The position numbers were made by a program, and so were the translations under genes. Below, piece after piece: positions 46,379-52,389 of a stretch of DNA of 53,527 nucleotides (position 1 is the stretch's first letter; every line of letters begins with the position of its first letter). The DNA comes from an uncultured Gammaproteobacteria bacterium (GTDB lineage: Bacteria; Patescibacteriota; Microgenomatia; UBA10105; UBA927): the NCBI GenBank assembly GCA_964527425.1, contig CAZGOA010000007.1, forward strand, positions 1-53,527. Direction: 5' to 3'. Under the pieces are notes generated by a model. It did no database searches. It was not told the DNA's origin and saw only the letters and a program-made list of their open reading frames with translations.

Positions 46379-48001
46379 ATGGATTCAACACACTATACTA
46401 AAGTATCCTCATACGAGGCAAAAGCAGGTGAAGTAAAAAAAGTAGTTTTACTATTTTCAGGGGGACTTGATACCTCATGTATGTTAACGTGGATTAAAGA
46501 AGAATTTAATGCGGAAGTAATTGCATTAACTCTGGATTTGGGACAGCAGGATGATAGTCTCGAAGCTATTAAGAAAAAAGCGCTTGCGTTAGGAGCAAAA
46601 AAAGCCTACGTTATCGATGTAAAAGATGAATTTGCAAATGATTATCTTACACACTTAATCAAAGCAAATGGTTCGTACCAGGGCGATTATCATATATCAA
46701 CAATAAGCAGATATTTAATGGCAAAATGGTCAGTCATTATTGCCTATAAAGAAAAAGCTGATGCGATTGCTCACGGATGCACAGGGAAAGGAAATGATCA
46801 GGTACGTATCGATGCAGCGGCCTTAGCACTTGATCCTAATATCAAAATAATTGCCCCCGTTAGAGAATGGGATATGAGTAGAGATGAGGAAATTGAATAT
46901 GCAAAAAAAAGGGGAATAGAAACACCAGCAAAAAAAGACTTCCCTTATTCAAGTGATGACAATATGTGGGGTATTACGTGGGAAGGTGGAGAGATAGAAG
47001 ATCCAAAAGAAATACCGCAAAGTGAACGATTCCTTACTGCTACAACACTCTTAGAAAAAACTCCTGATGTTCCTGAAAATATTACCCTAAGCTTTCGGAA
47101 AGGTATACCGTATGCAATAAATGGAACTTCAATGAAGTTATCTGAGCTGATTATGAAACTCAATACTATTGCAGGTGCCCATGGCGTTGGAGTTGTTCAT
47201 CACGTAGAAGACAGAGTCATAGGTTTAAAAAGCAGAGGTGTATATGAGCATCCAGCAGGTCATACAATCATTCAGGCTCACAAAGCATTGGAAAAATATG
47301 TATCATCCCGGCTTGAGAATGAACTCAAAGAAATGATGGATATTAAATGGGCTTACTTATGTTATGGAGCTCAATGGATGGATCCAGTACTCAGTGATAT
47401 TCATGCTTTTAATGATAAAATAAATGAAAAAGTATCAGGCGAAGTAACAGTAAAACTTTTTAAAGGTCATGCAACTGTTGTCGCACTTAATTCACCGTTT
47501 GGGCTTCATCATGCTTCATTTAATAGAACTGGAGGAGCAGCCTTTAATACACAAACATCAGCACCATTTATCGAAGTGTACAGTATGCAGGCACGGCTTT
47601 CACAGCAACGAGCTGAAAAAACTGCACTAATTTCTATTGGTAAACCGGAAGACAAACAAGAGCTCGTTTCGTCTATAAAAAAACTGGCACAACTACAGTA
47701 TCAATTATTTGCAACCGAAAAAACTCACAGATTTCTGATGGAAGAACATATTCCCTCTCTCCTTGTTCATAAAATCAGCTCTTCAAAACAACCGAACATC
47801 GGAACTATCTTTACCAATCGAGGATTTGATTTAATTATTAATATTCCACTCAGTGATAAAGGGAAAAAAGAAGAGACCGATGGAAATATAATACGGAAAT
47901 ATGCAGTTGAATCTAATACTCCACTGGCAACTGAAGTTGATGTAGCAAAGCAGATGATTGATAAATTGTATAAAGTCAAATTTGGAAATATGGAACAGTA
48001 A
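46379..48001 (+). CDS. argG: Argininosuccinate synthase fused to a C-terminal MGS-like (CarB allosteric-type) domain
   Basis: LLFSGGLDTS, AHGCTGKGNDQVR, YSSDDNMWG, LKSRGVYEHP; tail TALISIG...LFATEKT...DLIINIP...DGNIIRKYAVE. Confidence 0.88.
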   Translation: MDSTHYTKVSSYEAKAGEVKKVVLLFSGGLDTSCMLTWIKEEFNAEVIALTLDLGQQDDSLEAIKKKALALGAKKAYVIDVKDEFANDYLTHLIKANGSYQGDYHISTISRYLMAKWSVIIAYKEKADAIAHGCTGKGNDQVRIDAAALALDPNIKIIAPVREWDMSRDEEIEYAKKRGIETPAKKDFPYSSDDNMWGITWEGGEIEDPKEIPQSERFLTATTLLEKTPDVPENITLSFRKGIPYAINGTSMKLSELIMKLNTIAGAHGVGVVHHVEDRVIGLKSRGVYEHPAGHTIIQAHKALEKYVSSRLENELKEMMDIKWAYLCYGAQWMDPVLSDIHAFNDKINEKVSGEVTVKLFKGHATVVALNSPFGLHHASFNRTGGAAFNTQTSAPFIEVYSMQARLSQQRAEKTALISIGKPEDKQELVSSIKKLAQLQYQLFATEKTHRFLMEEHIPSLLVHKISSSKQPNIGTIFTNRGFDLIINIPLSDKGKKEETDGNIIRKYAVESNTPLATEVDVAKQMIDKLYKVKFGNMEQ

Positions 48002-48003
48002 TC

Positions 48004-48993
48004 ATGAAAAGTAAAAAAAATACACTTGAATATTATCACGTAAAACAGTTACTACTCGAAAAAATTAAAAAACAAGGTGGATGGGTGAATTGTCATTCAC
48101 ACATTGATAGAGCGTTTACTATTTCAAAAGATAATTTTCATTTATTTTACCGTCCAAGACCAGAAAAATGGAAGTTAAATGCAGAATTGAGAAGACATTC
48201 GACAACAGATCAAATCTATGATCGAATGGCAAAAGCAATTGAATACATGTTACATCAGGGTGTTCACGCAATAGGTTCTTTTATAGATGTTGATTATGAC
48301 ATTAAAGATAAAGGTATAAAAGCAGCCACAAAAATCCGGGAAAAATATAAAAACGACATTACGATTAAATATTTAAATCAATCAAGTTATGGAATACTTA
48401 ATAAAGAAGCAAGAGAGTGGTTTGAAGTTGGAGCTGATTTTGCAGACATAATTGGTGGATTATTAAAAGCTGATCAGGGAAAAGAAGAAGAACATTTAGA
48501 TATTTTACTAGAAGCAGCCTACAAACGAAAGAAAATGGTGCATATTCATGTAGATGAACAAAATATTACAGAAGAAAAAGAAACAGCAATATTAATTAAA
48601 AAAACTATTGAACACAACATGCAGAATAAGGTTGTTGGTATTCATGGAATCTCAATTAATACTCATCCCAAACACTATAGAGAAACACTTTATAGTGATA
48701 TAAAAAAGGCAGGAATAATGTTTATCTCGTGTCCAATGTCTTGGCTCAATGAACGAAGAAGTGAAGAATTAACACCAACGCATAATCCTATAACTCCTGT
48801 TGATGAGATGCTTCCATTTGATATTACAGTTGGTATTGGTACAGATAACATTGCAGATATTTGGATGCCGTTTAATGATGCAGACATGTGGAATGATTTG
48901 AGAGTACTTATAGAGGCAGCACGAATTTATGATATTGAAACGCTTGTTAATATTTCTACAGTGAATGGAAGAAAAATATTAGGTTTATCTTAA
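48004..48993 (+). CDS. Cytosine-deaminase-like metal-dependent amidohydrolase
   Basis: NCHSHIDRA, HIHVDE, GIHG, GTDNIAD.WMPF. Confidence 0.8.
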   Translation: MKSKKNTLEYYHVKQLLLEKIKKQGGWVNCHSHIDRAFTISKDNFHLFYRPRPEKWKLNAELRRHSTTDQIYDRMAKAIEYMLHQGVHAIGSFIDVDYDIKDKGIKAATKIREKYKNDITIKYLNQSSYGILNKEAREWFEVGADFADIIGGLLKADQGKEEEHLDILLEAAYKRKKMVHIHVDEQNITEEKETAILIKKTIEHNMQNKVVGIHGISINTHPKHYRETLYSDIKKAGIMFISCPMSWLNERRSEELTPTHNPITPVDEMLPFDITVGIGTDNIADIWMPFNDADMWNDLRVLIEAARIYDIETLVNISTVNGRKILGLS

Positions 48994-50052
48994 ATGAACT
49001 TATACGATATTTCTAAGCCGTTTGACTATAACACTAGGTTAGGGCCATTTTGGAAAGGTAAGATACCTCAAGTTCCTGTATGTAATAAGCCGTTTTCTTT
49101 TTTAGGACAGACAGTAAATTCATTATTTGGAGCATCTGCATTTCCATTAACTCATGGATGTAACGGAGTACGACTACTTTCTCAATTAGGATACGACATT
49201 ATTACGTATCGATCTGTCAGAAGTAAGCAGTGGTTAGGACAACCCTATCCACACTGGAGATATGTTGATATTACTAAACAATTAAGTGTTGAGGATCTAA
49301 ATAATCCCGTAAGAGGGGATGATAAACCGTTTTCGTTACAAGATGTCTCAACAGCAAATAGTTTTGGCATTCAGTCAGCTAAACCTGAGAATTGGCAACG
49401 CGATGTAGAGAAAGCAAAACATACCTTACAAAAAGGTCAGATACTAATTCTTTCTATCATGTTTACTCCCGAAGAAGGAAAGAATGTTATTAAAGATGCT
49501 GCTGAAGTTGCTCGGTACGCCAAGGAAACGTCAGTAATAGCGTTTGAGATTAATTTAGCGCATCCCAACTCTGGTATGAAATCACTCGTTTACGAAGATA
49601 TTGAAACAAGTGTAGCAATTTGTAAATCTATAAAAAAAATAATTACTGATAGACCATTAATTGCAAAAGTAGGATATTACAAAAACCAACAACTTCTGAC
49701 AGAATTTCTTAAACAAACGAATGGATTGATAGAAGGTATCTCGTCAACCAACACTTACGCTATGACGATCATTGATGCACAAGGGAAAGAACTATTCCCA
49801 AATCGACCAAAAGCAGGAGTTTCAGGGAACGCCATACGAACACTGTCCAAGCATCAAGCTAAAACGATAATAGATCAGAAAAAAGCATTAAGGCTTGACC
49901 ATTTAGCAGTAATTGGTATCGGAGGGGTTATCAAGCCAGAACATATACAACAGTATATTGATCTGGGTGTTGACGCTGTACAGGCAGCAACTGGTATTTG
50001 GGCAGATCCATTATTGGCAATTAAATACAAACGTACGTTATCTCTTAATTGA
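48994..50052 (+). CDS. Dihydroorotate dehydrogenase-like FMN protein with an altered active-site loop
   Basis: NSFG, EINLAHPN (vs consensus ExNxSCPN), STNT, IGIGGV, VQAATG. Confidence 0.75.
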   Translation: MNLYDISKPFDYNTRLGPFWKGKIPQVPVCNKPFSFLGQTVNSLFGASAFPLTHGCNGVRLLSQLGYDIITYRSVRSKQWLGQPYPHWRYVDITKQLSVEDLNNPVRGDDKPFSLQDVSTANSFGIQSAKPENWQRDVEKAKHTLQKGQILILSIMFTPEEGKNVIKDAAEVARYAKETSVIAFEINLAHPNSGMKSLVYEDIETSVAICKSIKKIITDRPLIAKVGYYKNQQLLTEFLKQTNGLIEGISSTNTYAMTIIDAQGKELFPNRPKAGVSGNAIRTLSKHQAKTIIDQKKALRLDHLAVIGIGGVIKPEHIQQYIDLGVDAVQAATGIWADPLLAIKYKRTLSLN

Positions 50053-50871
50053 AAGTGTTTTGATAGTAGAACGAATAGCATCTGTAGTCCACAATGGGAA
50101 GGAAACTACAGAAAATGGAGTTTCATTAACTCCTTCCATTTCTAATAGATCATCTTGTGAATAAGAAAAAGCACCAACTGTAACTCTAGACAATGCCCCT
50201 TTAATTCTTTGTTGTGCAATAGGATCATTCGTTTCATTCAGTAATGTTTTTGCCGCTTGTGCAAGACTTTGGATACTATCATCCAATAGAAACACACGTG
50301 TGTTTGTTGATGCTTCCTCAAGTGAAAACTGTCGGATTATTTTTGTTAACTTATCTTTTGAATCCGTACAAACAACAACTGTACCCTCTCTAAATCCATT
50401 CTTTTCAAGCCATTGGGAAGTTACAGCTCCTGCTTTTGGTCTTCTTGCGGTGAAATATCCACCAAATGTTCCATGGTATTTCTCAAAAAGTGAACTAAGA
50501 AGTGATACCCCGGAAACAGCTCCAGCCATCGGTGGGTAGTTAAGATGAATGTCTTCACTTTCAAGAATTATACTGCGTGCTTGTTCAAAAAGCATGTTAT
50601 CTGTTTGTTGTGTATCTTGATCTTGTTTACGTCTATTTGCAATTTGAGGGACATCAAACGTCTGTCGGTGATAACCAGAGATTCTGATTTCTTCTTCAGG
50701 AATATCCAATTTGAGTAATTCATTATATGTACGTACCTGATCTACCATTATCTCTGCCAGCACTTGATCTACATCAAATACAACTACTACATTTGTTAAA
50801 TCTGGATTTTCTTGAGCTAATATAAGCTCTAGAAAACGTTGTCGAGAAATTCCAGTTTCTTCAATTGCCAT
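50038..50871 (-). CDS. HAD-superfamily nucleotidase-like phosphatase
   Basis: VVFDVDQVL, YFTARR, FLLDDS. Confidence 0.6.
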   Translation of the reverse strand: MAIEETGISRQRFLELILAQENPDLTNVVVVFDVDQVLAEIMVDQVRTYNELLKLDIPEEEIRISGYHRQTFDVPQIANRRKQDQDTQQTDNMLFEQARSIILESEDIHLNYPPMAGAVSGVSLLSSLFEKYHGTFGGYFTARRPKAGAVTSQWLEKNGFREGTVVVCTDSKDKLTKIIRQFSLEEASTNTRVFLLDDSIQSLAQAAKTLLNETNDPIAQQRIKGALSRVTVGAFSYSQDDLLEMEGVNETPFSVVSFPLWTTDAIRSTIKTLSIKR

Positions 50872-50877
50872 ATGGGC

Positions 50878-51684
50878 TTATAGTATCACTTTCGAGCTGA
50901 TATTACCATCTTTCCCGATGATAGCTGCTGCAGCGTATTTTCCTTCTTCGATTGCTCTTTCAATATTTTTATCTTGATCATATGACAGTGAAAAATGTAA
51001 CGCAAAATTATCTCCAGCTCCTGTAACATCCACTACCGATGAAACATTTGGTGCTTTAAAAAAGAGCGATGCCTCTGAATGTCTCAATATTTCACCGCCA
51101 TGTTTTCCTTTCGTTATTATAACCGCTTGAATTTCTTTACTCATTGGCTGTGTTTCCTTAATAATTGCCCATTCTTCTTCATTAGAAAATAATAATTTTG
51201 CTTTATCAAATAATGGTATATACAAATACTCAGGATGTTTAATTATTTGAGGACCGGGAATATAGATTATATTTCTGTTGTGTATGAGAGGATAGATTTT
51301 TTGTAGTAGTGAAAGAGGGGAATTTACAATAAATATAAGATCAAAAGATTGTATATATGCTTTAGGAGGATTAATTTTGGGAAAATAGGGAAGTGATCCA
51401 TTATCTTTCCAAATTCTTTGGGTGCTTAGGTGTTCAATATCGATTGGAATATGGCATGTGGGTATAGATGATGCATGCAAAAAACTATACAGGAATTGCA
51501 CTGAATTTTTTTTAAGTATTTGTTTATACCAACGTCCGTTTTTATCGTCTGACAATACTGTTAACAGATGTGATTCTATTCCTAACGTAGAAGCATTTAG
51601 AGAAAGTGCTCCGGCTGCTCCTCCAGGATACTGTTTACCTTTAATATAATCTACTGTAGCAAAACCTACAAAAAGACATTTCAT
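50878..51684 (-). CDS. PfkB-family kinase
   Basis: YPGGAAG, SNEEEW, ITKGKHG, DVTGAGDNF. Confidence 0.85.
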   Translation of the reverse strand: MKCLFVGFATVDYIKGKQYPGGAAGALSLNASTLGIESHLLTVLSDDKNGRWYKQILKKNSVQFLYSFLHASSIPTCHIPIDIEHLSTQRIWKDNGSLPYFPKINPPKAYIQSFDLIFIVNSPLSLLQKIYPLIHNRNIIYIPGPQIIKHPEYLYIPLFDKAKLLFSNEEEWAIIKETQPMSKEIQAVIITKGKHGGEILRHSEASLFFKAPNVSSVVDVTGAGDNFALHFSLSYDQDKNIERAIEEGKYAAAAIIGKDGNISSKVIL

Positions 51685-51753
51685 GCTCCGTATTGTAGCA
51701 TGGATGTTGTGCCTCTTTTACAAAAAAAATCCCTGAGTTAAGATAGTGGGTGA

Positions 51754-52389
51754 ATGAAGAATAATATTATCGAGATGTTGAAATCGGTGGGTGCAATTAT
51801 TACAGATAGTCACGTTGTGTACACATCAGGAAAACATGGAAGTGTGTATATCAATAAAGATGCATTATATCCTCATACCGCTCTATCTTCTCAGGTAGGT
51901 CAGATGTTTGCAGAACTAAATAAACAATTAGATATCGATGTGGTTGTCGCTCCAGCATTAGGTGGCATTATTTTGTCTCAATGGACAGCATATCATTTAT
52001 CAGCAATAAAAAAGAAAGAAATACTTGGTGTTTATACTGAAAAGGATGCTGATAAAAATCAGATTTTTACCAGAGGATATGATTCGTACATAAAAGGGAA
52101 AAAAATATTAGTTATTGAGGATTTAACGACAACAGGAGGGTCTGTTCTGAACGTTGTTACACGTGTGCGTGATACTGGTGGAACAGTGGTTGGAGTCTCA
52201 GTTATGGTAAACAGAAATCCTGATCAAGTAAATGAATCACTTTTTAATGCACCGTTTTCAGCTTTAGGATTAGTAAGGGCAGAAGCATTTGATGAAGTCA
52301 ATTGTCCGTTGTGTAAAAAATCCATTCCTGTCAATACAACTGTTGGTCATGGTAAAAAATATCTCGAATCTAAACGTAGTACTAATTGA
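51754..52389 (+). CDS. pyrE: Orotate phosphoribosyltransferase
   Basis: SHVVYTSGKHGSVYINKD, LVIEDLTTTGGS, C-terminal CPLC. Confidence 0.85.
   Translation: MKNNIIEMLKSVGAIITDSHVVYTSGKHGSVYINKDALYPHTALSSQVGQMFAELNKQLDIDVVVAPALGGIILSQWTAYHLSAIKKKEILGVYTEKDADKNQIFTRGYDSYIKGKKILVIEDLTTTGGSVLNVVTRVRDTGGTVVGVSVMVNRNPDQVNESLFNAPFSALGLVRAEAFDEVNCPLCKKSIPVNTTVGHGKKYLESKRSTN

Follow-up and report, generated by a model that had tools for sequence, protein, structure and literature searches.

The six-step route to uridine monophosphate (UMP) is taught as being among the most conserved pathways in biology. Argininosuccinate is known as the intermediate of the arginine and urea cycles, where it links the synthetase ArgG to a readily reversible lyase, ArgH, and two structurally solved amidohydrolases, AtzC and the cytosine deaminase CodA, release isopropylamine from a triazine and ammonia from cytosine. 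Here we analysed a DNA stretch of 53,527 nucleotides (the window), which is contig CAZGOA010000007.1 (C7) of assembly GCA_964527425.1, from an uncultured bacterium of the Microgenomates group (Patescibacteria, or candidate phyla radiation, CPR). The genome that carries it (G000) is a 1.18-Mb assembly of 17 contigs with a completeness of 94.7%. A cluster in the window encodes an ArgG fused to an MGS-like domain (ArgG-MGS), an amidohydrolase of family PRK06886 (hereafter Amh), a protein resembling dihydroorotate dehydrogenase (DHODH) and a PyrE-like protein. With confidence only slightly better than even, we read it as part of a second widespread pyrimidine route, in which ornithine serves as the carbamoyl carrier, PRK06886 acts as an "argininosuccinate cyclohydrolase" and the MGS domain moves among ArgG, an AsnA-like enzyme and the hydrolase; this would be the sole UMP route in many Patescibacteria, in Blattabacterium and in some free-living Flavobacteriales and Chitinophagaceae.

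Searches with hidden Markov models, together with tblastn using the proteins of close relatives, revealed no carA, carB, pyrC or argH in the genome, and no pyrB, the single carbamoyltransferase being an ornithine transcarbamoylase (OTCase). The genes carAB, pyrB, pyrC and argH, whose absence from the window had been noted in a preliminary description of this DNA, are thus missing from all 17 contigs. For PyrC, the model TIGR00857 gave no match in the genome, and tblastn and phmmer with E. coli type-II or CPR PyrC queries recovered no PyrC, Amh being the sole related amidohydrolase found; for ArgH, the search returned just PurB at 32 bits. The late pathway genes are thus complete and the early ones missing, and ArgG is left in this genome without its lyase partner.

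Analysis of the gene order confirmed the tight packing described earlier, with exactly reproduced coordinates: in the map of open reading frames (ORFs), argG-MGS and amh are separated by 2 bp, amh and the DHODH-like gene by 0 bp, and pyrE is close by. Amh was found in 6 of 41 relatives, and ArgG-MGS lay immediately upstream in all five that were fetched. Downstream (3′) of the pair came carA-carB-pyrB-pyrC-pyrD in G007, a canonical pyrD followed by pyrE and pyrF in G029, and the DHODH-like gene, pyrF, pyrE and upp in G019 and G017. With each GTDB species represented by one genome, a scan gave 449 Amh loci, and the best 80 were examined, about 60 of them from Patescibacteria. ArgG-MGS adjoins Amh in most of these ~60 loci, colinear or divergent, usually with PyrD, PyrE and PyrF as well, in groups that include Daviesbacteria, Roizmanbacteria, Woesebacteria, Levybacteria, Pacebacteria and Saccharibacteria. 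This arrangement is not due to chance.

Gene fusions point in the same direction. Amh and DHODH form a single ORF at L017:8989-11136 (715 aa) and in P0182 (657 aa), a Rosetta-stone link which argues that the two act in consecutive steps. In five 50%-identity clusters, Amh itself bears the MGS domain at its N-terminus; fusions of this kind (473-487 aa) are P0135, P0138, P0143, P0153 and P0168 and the loci L119:8001-9443 and L122:8001-9455, and in two of these lineages the convergent neighbouring gene is DHO_dh. The occurrence of MGS on ArgG, on an AsnA-like enzyme or on Amh, depending on the lineage, is as expected for the committed step of a pyrimidine branch. Neighbouring FtsH, SmpB and RecG genes, on contigs of up to 280 kb, suggest that the hosts of the MGS-Amh proteins lie outside CPR; P0138 and P0135 sit on short, context-poor contigs.

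Phylogenetic profiling, proposed in the preliminary description, was carried out for carB, pyrB, pyrC, pyrF, DHO_dh, argG and argH in 75 genomes (the 41 relatives plus 34 reached through Amh-positive loci). Both pyrB and pyrC are missing from 37 of the 40 Amh-positive genomes and are present just in G007, G054 and G057. DHODH and PyrF are kept in 35 of the 37 (the exceptions being G068 and the fragmentary G020), and ArgG or ArgH occurs in all 40. Among PyrF-positive CPR genomes, PyrB was detected in 3 of 28 with Amh versus 15 of 20 without it (p = 9e-6, in a case-control comparison uncorrected for phylogeny). In an independent test on 91 Flavobacteriales genomes drawn evenly across the order, PyrB was missing from 14 of 14 Amh-positive versus 2 of 77 Amh-negative members (Fisher p = 1.1e-14). 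The distribution of Amh thus excludes pyrB and pyrC in two phyla.

Of the 30 CPR genomes with Amh, 17 carry ArgG-MGS and lack ArgH, G047 and G058 being examples with complete chromosomes; without a further enzyme, the argininosuccinate made in these 17 would lead nowhere. Many relatives do hold ArgH elsewhere together with a second, plain ArgG of ~420 aa, often beside it (G007, G017, G019, G029, G042, G044, and G057), which leaves the fused copy spare for another role; the absence of argH is therefore not a general rule. Because of this separate plain ArgG, the idea that ArgG-MGS is merely the arginine enzyme of its lineage was rejected, although in G000 the fused ArgG domain itself belongs with the plain ones. 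The Amh family is also found in Blattabacterium, Weeksellaceae, Chitinophagaceae and other Bacteroidota, where ArgG is never its neighbour. ArgH is its immediate neighbour at nine Bacteroidota loci, and in Weeksella it is flanked by CtlX and an arginine-deiminase-like gene. Two argininosuccinate-handling enzymes, ArgG in CPR and ArgH in Bacteroidota, thus flank one hydrolase in two phyla. Five Bacteroidota genomes of 2.4-5.7 Mb (G069 and G071-G074) possess ArgH, PyrD and PyrF and have no ArgG, CarB or PyrB; ArgH adjoins Amh in two of the five, and none of them has a PyrC over the cut-off, G069 having one match to the PyrC model at 250 bits versus a cut-off of 279. In Blattabacterium and two other Flavobacteriales, ArgG carries an N-terminal extension of ~190 aa, for a total of 582-596 aa (L110:512-2302, L111:7896-9647, and L112:641-2389).

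The ArgG domain of ArgG-MGS is full length (residues ~18-412) and is followed by the MGS-like domain (residues ~405-535). It matched ArgG models at equivalog level (NF001770, 468.1 bits for a cut-off of 334; TIGR00032, 417.6 bits for a cut-off of 268.2) and aligned end to end with solved ArgGs, the best PDB matches being 6xnq (343 bits) and 1j1z (304 bits). The P-loop of N-type ATP-pyrophosphatases (SGGxDTS) is present as LLFSGGLDTS, and so is the citrulline/aspartate motif TGKGNDQVR (AHGCTGKGNDQVR); we take the roles of these residues to be those seen in the T. thermophilus and human argininosuccinate synthetase structures. In an ArgG tree, 56 ArgG-MGS sequences formed one clade, and the ArgG domain of the window, with the G020 and G022 copies, grouped with plain CPR ArgGs (98/92 support). 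A standard ArgG domain therefore serves in this fusion, which argues that its product is argininosuccinate.

The MGS domain matched PF02142 with 51.5 bits (threshold 24.1), and the C-terminus aligned to positions 929-1050 of the CarB model. CarB residues K954, T974, T977 and K993, presumably the ligands of the inosine monophosphate (IMP) or UMP phosphate in E. coli carbamoyl-phosphate synthetase (CPSase), as in the CPS-IMP structure, are kept in all aligned ArgG-MGS and AsnA-like-MGS sequences; at T1016 and T1017, the ArgG-MGS domain has I and P instead. From these positions we propose that ArgG-MGS is the committed, nucleotide-regulated step. UMP feedback through the MGS domain had been suggested before; a nucleotide sensor is what the conserved phosphate-binding residues point to, with a pyrimidine or purine mononucleotide as the probable ligand.

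Amh matched NF005365/PRK06886, a family annotated as "hypothetical protein", over profile positions 8-324 of 327 (411.4 bits; cut-off 340). Cytosine-deaminase models scored far below their cut-offs (NF005759, 89.9 versus 403; NF005748, 76.6 versus 438; NF006685, 70 versus 483), so that the plain cytosine deaminase considered in the preliminary description is not what the gene encodes. The nearest solved relative by profile was AtzC (2qt3, 107.8 bits), slightly ahead of CodA and 5-methylcytosine deaminase. An AF2 model with a predicted local distance difference test score (pLDDT) of 93.5 describes Amh as a bare TIM barrel without the N-terminal beta-sandwich; the match to CodA (~425 aa) begins at its residue ~57. 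Foldseek placed this predicted structure closest to 5-methylcytosine deaminase, CodA and AtzC, with template modelling (TM) scores of 0.78-0.84, and returned no dihydroorotase among the top 50 neighbours. Five residues, His31, His33, His182, His214 and Asp281, are invariant in an alignment of 72 Amh sequences. The first three and Asp281 map onto the metal ligands H61/H63/H214/D313 of CodA, and His214 onto H246. The equivalent of CodA D314 is an invariant asparagine, and that of E217 is a glutamine in most of the 72 sequences and a glutamate in G000. In the complete 1.0-Mb genome G017, Amh is split by a stop or frameshift (C1:1005291-1006182, that is L012:9241-10180) and is followed by an AsnA-like-MGS gene; one entry route may here be in the course of replacement by another. 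A distant marine relative, P0285, adjoins citrate synthase and dUTPase. Among ten cluster representatives that were looked up, those with a named source came from Patescibacteria or from marine sources.

Taken as a pathway, these genes suggest the following reactions. First, ArgG-MGS, given its intact canonical ArgG domain, would convert citrulline, aspartate and adenosine triphosphate (ATP) into argininosuccinate, and its activity would probably be restrained by a mononucleotide, pyrimidine or purine, at the conserved phosphate site of its MGS domain. Secondly, Amh would convert argininosuccinate into L-dihydroorotate and ornithine. Its likeliest substrate would be a six-membered cyclic anhydride, in which the free guanidino nitrogen has closed onto the beta-carboxyl group to give a 2-(N-ornithino) analogue of dihydroorotate, and from which Amh would hydrolytically displace the ornithine amine at C2, as AtzC does with isopropylamine and CodA with ammonia. 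Such argininosuccinate anhydrides are real species, routinely followed by mass spectrometry (PMC11016166). Alternatively, hydrolysis of the bond between the guanidino carbon and the ornithine nitrogen would yield ornithine and N-carbamoyl-aspartate; since the genome holds no dihydroorotase, dihydroorotate is favoured as the product. Thirdly, dihydroorotate would be oxidised by PyrD, which in G000 is probably the VKOR-fused class-2 enzyme encoded on contig C3, and PyrE would turn orotate into orotidine monophosphate (OMP) ahead of PyrF and PyrG. With ornithine carrying the carbamoyl unit, CPSase, aspartate transcarbamoylase (ATCase) and dihydroorotase would all be bypassed. In Bacteroidota that have no ArgG, a reversed ArgH could form argininosuccinate from arginine and fumarate and feed Amh in this way.

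That Amh replaces ATCase and dihydroorotase in de novo pyrimidine synthesis is, in our view, very probable, while the specific reaction from argininosuccinate to dihydroorotate and ornithine, which draws on gene content, synteny, fusions and mutually exclusive distribution, is favoured with moderate confidence. The preliminary description had put forward an entry through argininosuccinate that needs neither CPSase nor ATCase; gene content, synteny and profiling uphold it, and the chemistry is what we infer. A full-text search of the literature retrieved no paper on an argininosuccinate-to-dihydroorotate reaction or on the function of PRK06886. Citrulline has been named as a pyrimidine precursor for H. 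influenzae, in a medium that also contained aspartate and fumarate (Sinha et al. 2013, PMC3739930), and a GapMind 2026 preprint mentions amidohydrolases of another family, as a DapE replacement.

The DHODH-like protein of the window is a divergent class-1-like member of its family (PF01180, 45.1 bits; gathering score 27). Its catalytic loop reads EINLAHPN, with His190 (49540-49572) at the place of the cysteine found as (S/A)CPN in 28 of 28 orthologues and in the other PyrD of the genome. The histidine is thus private to G000, and the copy may be impaired, decaying, altered or repurposed. The same family occurs in canonical carB-pyrB-pyrC-pyrF clusters without Amh (G004, G036, and G039), which makes it an ordinary though divergent PyrD; the notion of a variant DHODH as a special part of the route is accordingly abandoned, the orthologues keeping the cysteine and the histidine being confined to G000. 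The other PyrD, a class-2 (quinone-type) enzyme, has an N-terminal VKOR-like membrane domain within a total of 496 aa, and frames of ~500-560 aa resembling this VKOR-DHODH are found in several relatives (G004, G028, G041, G044, G045, G051, and G063). A complete Roizmanbacteria chromosome encodes a DHODH-like domain with a C-terminal PRTase-CE-like domain (L062:4668-6569, 633 aa). Five related CPR genomes (G002, G006, G008, G016, and G027) have carB, pyrB, pyrC and pyrF and no PF01180 match at E <= 1e-6, G008 being listed as 100% complete; these may use an unrecognised DHODH.

PyrE scored 123.4 bits against TIGR01367, under the cut-off of 150.25, and 42 bits against PF00156. Its phosphoribosyl pyrophosphate (PRPP)-binding loop is present (ILVIEDLTTTGGS, VIEDLTTTGGS), and orthologues with 57-68% identity adjoin pyrF in related clusters. 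The positions of these genes are collected in Table 1.

Table 1. Genes of the cluster and further pyrimidine and arginine genes of the same genome (positions in the window unless a contig is named)
Feature	Position	Strand	Basis
ArgG-MGS	46379-48001	+	ORF map; NF001770, PF02142
Amh (amidohydrolase)	48004-48993	+	PRK06886/NF005365; 329 aa
DHODH-like	48994-50052	+	PF01180
277-aa ORF	50038-50871	-	sub-threshold NT5C match; DxD motif (FDVDQVL)
PfkB-family kinase	50878-51684	-	70.8 bits
PyrE-like, Thermus type	51754-52389	+	TIGR01367, PF00156
OTCase	C1:48277-49194	-	TIGR00658, 412 bits
PyrD class 2, VKOR-fused	C3:97910-99400	-	NF003652, 279 bits
PyrF	C5:76917-77735		present in the genome
PyrG	contig C2		present in the genome
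CtlX, citrulline-utilisation hydrolase	C5:46745-47683	-	NF046062, 382 bits

Two further genes, the 277-aa ORF and the PfkB-family kinase, separate the DHODH-like gene from pyrE. They had been described, with pyrE, as the downstream part of the cluster. Of the three, pyrE stands as a pathway gene; the other two were rejected as members of the module, having no homologue at ~85 related loci, which makes them a local insertion outside it. For the label "HAD phosphatase" given to the 277-aa ORF, the evidence is its weak NT5C match (E = 0.11). The two may form a nucleoside kinase/nucleotidase salvage pair. Elsewhere in the genome, the gene of the bona fide OTCase stands alone within a large glycosyltransferase/cell-envelope cluster, and nothing that would supply carbamoyl phosphate was detected in G000. 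CtlX adjoins ArgG-MGS at three CPR loci (L027, L029, and L037) and Amh in Weeksella (L087:10948-11886), and may either supply or drain citrulline. No tblastn match to a carbamate kinase (E. coli YbcF) or to the Weeksella arginine-deiminase-like protein was obtained in G000, with single-sequence queries of limited sensitivity.

Other functions of Amh were weighed against its role as a hydrolase of argininosuccinate. The one that survives best, unlikely as we judge it to be, makes Amh a non-orthologous dihydroorotase acting on N-carbamoyl-aspartate from an unrecognised ATCase activity, for example an OTCase-like one, and reduces ArgG-MGS to a regulated arginine enzyme. Amh does belong to the dihydroorotase superfamily and occupies the pyrC position beside PyrD, to which it is sometimes fused. 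G000 has an OTCase/ArgF'-like gene, and such a gene stands next to carB in Blattabacterium, Weeksella and their relatives; a shared carbamoyl phosphate could explain the sharing of operons between arginine and pyrimidine genes. However, neither carB nor any carbamoyltransferase accompanies the Amh, PyrD and PyrF retained in G071-G074 and in many CPR genomes, the sequence and fold of Amh go with AtzC and CodA and not with the dihydroorotases, and neither the 17 genomes with ArgG-MGS and no ArgH nor the ArgH genes found beside Amh without ArgG would be explained.

Somewhat less likely again is a different chemistry for the same genes, in which ArgG-MGS would use another ureido donor (urea, for instance, to give guanidinosuccinate) and Amh would deaminate a cyclised 2-imino-dihydroorotate, or in which Amh would stop at N-carbamoyl-aspartate and leave ring closure to another enzyme. 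A true deaminase would suit the CodA-like fold and the 2-imino analogue envisaged in the preliminary description, and ring closure could be performed, with ATP, by the AsnA-like-MGS protein that some clusters encode. The ArgG domain, by contrast, is equivalog-level, has all its substrate motifs and groups in G000 with plain ArgGs; the partner in Bacteroidota is ArgH, whose sole known adduct is argininosuccinate; and no dihydroorotase is at hand for the closure of the ring.

We consider it very unlikely that Amh is an accessory of arginine metabolism with an incidental link to pyrimidines, such as a repair enzyme reopening argininosuccinate anhydrides or another arginine or citrulline hydrolase. 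Its neighbourhood with argG in CPR and argH in Bacteroidota, and the CtlX and arginine-deiminase-like genes of Weeksella, would fit such a role, which nevertheless predicts no relation to pyrB, whereas Amh and PyrB are mutually exclusive in the 91 Flavobacteriales. Amh also accompanies incomplete arginine pathways (ArgG without ArgH, and ArgH without ArgG), and both its fusions to DHODH and the MGS-Amh fusions beside DHO_dh indicate pyrimidines. Least likely is a salvage deaminase acting on cytosine, isocytosine or a related aminopyrimidine and feeding Upp in hosts that live on salvage without pyrB and pyrC: the CodA family, the intact metal ligands and the upp gene of some clusters speak for it, but the cytosine-deaminase scores, the lost N-terminal domain and the invariant asparagine in place of D314 speak against it, PyrD, PyrE and PyrF are kept even in the 0.6-Mb Blattabacterium, and the DHODH fusions and the linkage to ArgG or ArgH would be unaccounted for.

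Several observations weigh against the argininosuccinate route itself. Concerning its chemistry, the cyclic anhydride as physiological substrate is a conjecture, and ring closure with amine displacement by one active site is a large demand. The replacement of E217 by glutamine in most Amh members, and of the second aspartate by asparagine, implies a chemistry that is not simply CodA-like. Concerning the genome, the assembly is 94.7% complete, the DHODH-like protein encoded in the window lacks the catalytic cysteine, and the ArgG domain encoded there groups with plain ArgGs, apart from the main ArgG-MGS clade. Searches of G000 detected neither an arginine deiminase nor a CPSase or carbamate kinase, so that the supply of citrulline is unaccounted for, and CtlX may consume citrulline. 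The full canonical set of G007, G054 and G057 means that Amh is not strictly a replacement.

Finally, an enzyme with an AsnRS-core/AsnA-like domain and a CarB-type MGS domain heads pyr clusters at L093:4384-5859 (G011), L094:4985-6505 (G014) and L012:10180-11598 (G017), and also at L030, L032 and L050. In G011 and G014, PyrD, PyrE and PyrF are present, carB, pyrB, pyrC, ArgG-MGS and Amh are absent, and AsnA-like-MGS is the sole candidate entry enzyme. Its function might be that of a second bypass, or else that of closing the ring at the expense of ATP. This gene content, too, counts against the argininosuccinate route: another entry route exists and could operate elsewhere as well.

If the argininosuccinate route is correct, de novo pyrimidine synthesis would not be universal in its first steps, and a new enzymatic reaction would tie the urea and arginine cycle to nucleotide synthesis while giving a function to a family that NCBI names "hypothetical protein". 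CPR bacteria, usually called nucleotide auxotrophs, could make pyrimidines. Long-standing "holes" in the genome-scale models of Patescibacteria, Blattabacterium and some Flavobacteriales would be filled, and the persistence of a lone ArgG or ArgH in reduced genomes would be explained.

Compared with the canonical CarAB-PyrB-PyrC system, the proposed route would likewise deliver dihydroorotate to PyrD-PyrE-PyrF, stand at the head of pyr clusters, use the whole aspartate molecule and place a CarB-type domain at its regulated entry. Unlike it, it would proceed without carbamoyl phosphate, ATCase or dihydroorotase: citrulline or arginine would donate the C2/N3 unit, as a ureido or guanidino group borne by ornithine, the ATP cost would fall on ArgG (yielding AMP and pyrophosphate) and not on CPSase, and the ring would be formed by a member of the AtzC/CodA branch. 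With the ArgG-ArgH segment of the arginine and urea cycles, it would have in common the first enzyme, the argininosuccinate intermediate and the regeneration of ornithine, but argininosuccinate would go to a pyrimidine ring and not to arginine and fumarate, ArgH being reversed in Bacteroidota.

As for the hydrolase, AtzC (N-isopropylammelide isopropylaminohydrolase; 2QT3 and 4CQB) is its best match in sequence among solved structures, with TM scores of 0.78-0.79 and a common C-terminal motif, (G/S)DNI.D.W.PF..GDM. By analogy, both enzymes would act hydrolytically on an sp2 carbon in a six-membered N-heterocycle, removing its N-alkylamine and leaving a C=O group. Identity to AtzC is only ~21%, however; Amh has no N-terminal beta-sandwich of ~50-70 residues and no triazine-degradation context, and it would act on an ornithine-bearing dihydropyrimidine carboxylate instead of an s-triazine. 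CodA (1K6W) and 5-methylcytosine deaminase (4R7W) are the best structural neighbours (TM 0.81-0.84). Amh keeps the HxH / H / D ligands of the CodA mononuclear metal and the second-shell histidine, and its substrate would be similarly pyrimidine-shaped; it differs in its biosynthetic and not salvage context, in the asparagine replacing D314, in the mostly glutamine residue at E217 and in the absence of the N-terminal domain. Arginase would share the cleavage between the guanidino carbon and the ornithine nitrogen, yet it has the ureohydrolase fold and Amh that of an amidohydrolase. The MGS domain, lastly, resembles the allosteric domain of CarB, which binds UMP, IMP and ornithine, but is carried here by ArgG, and elsewhere by the AsnA-like enzyme or Amh, and not by a CPSase.

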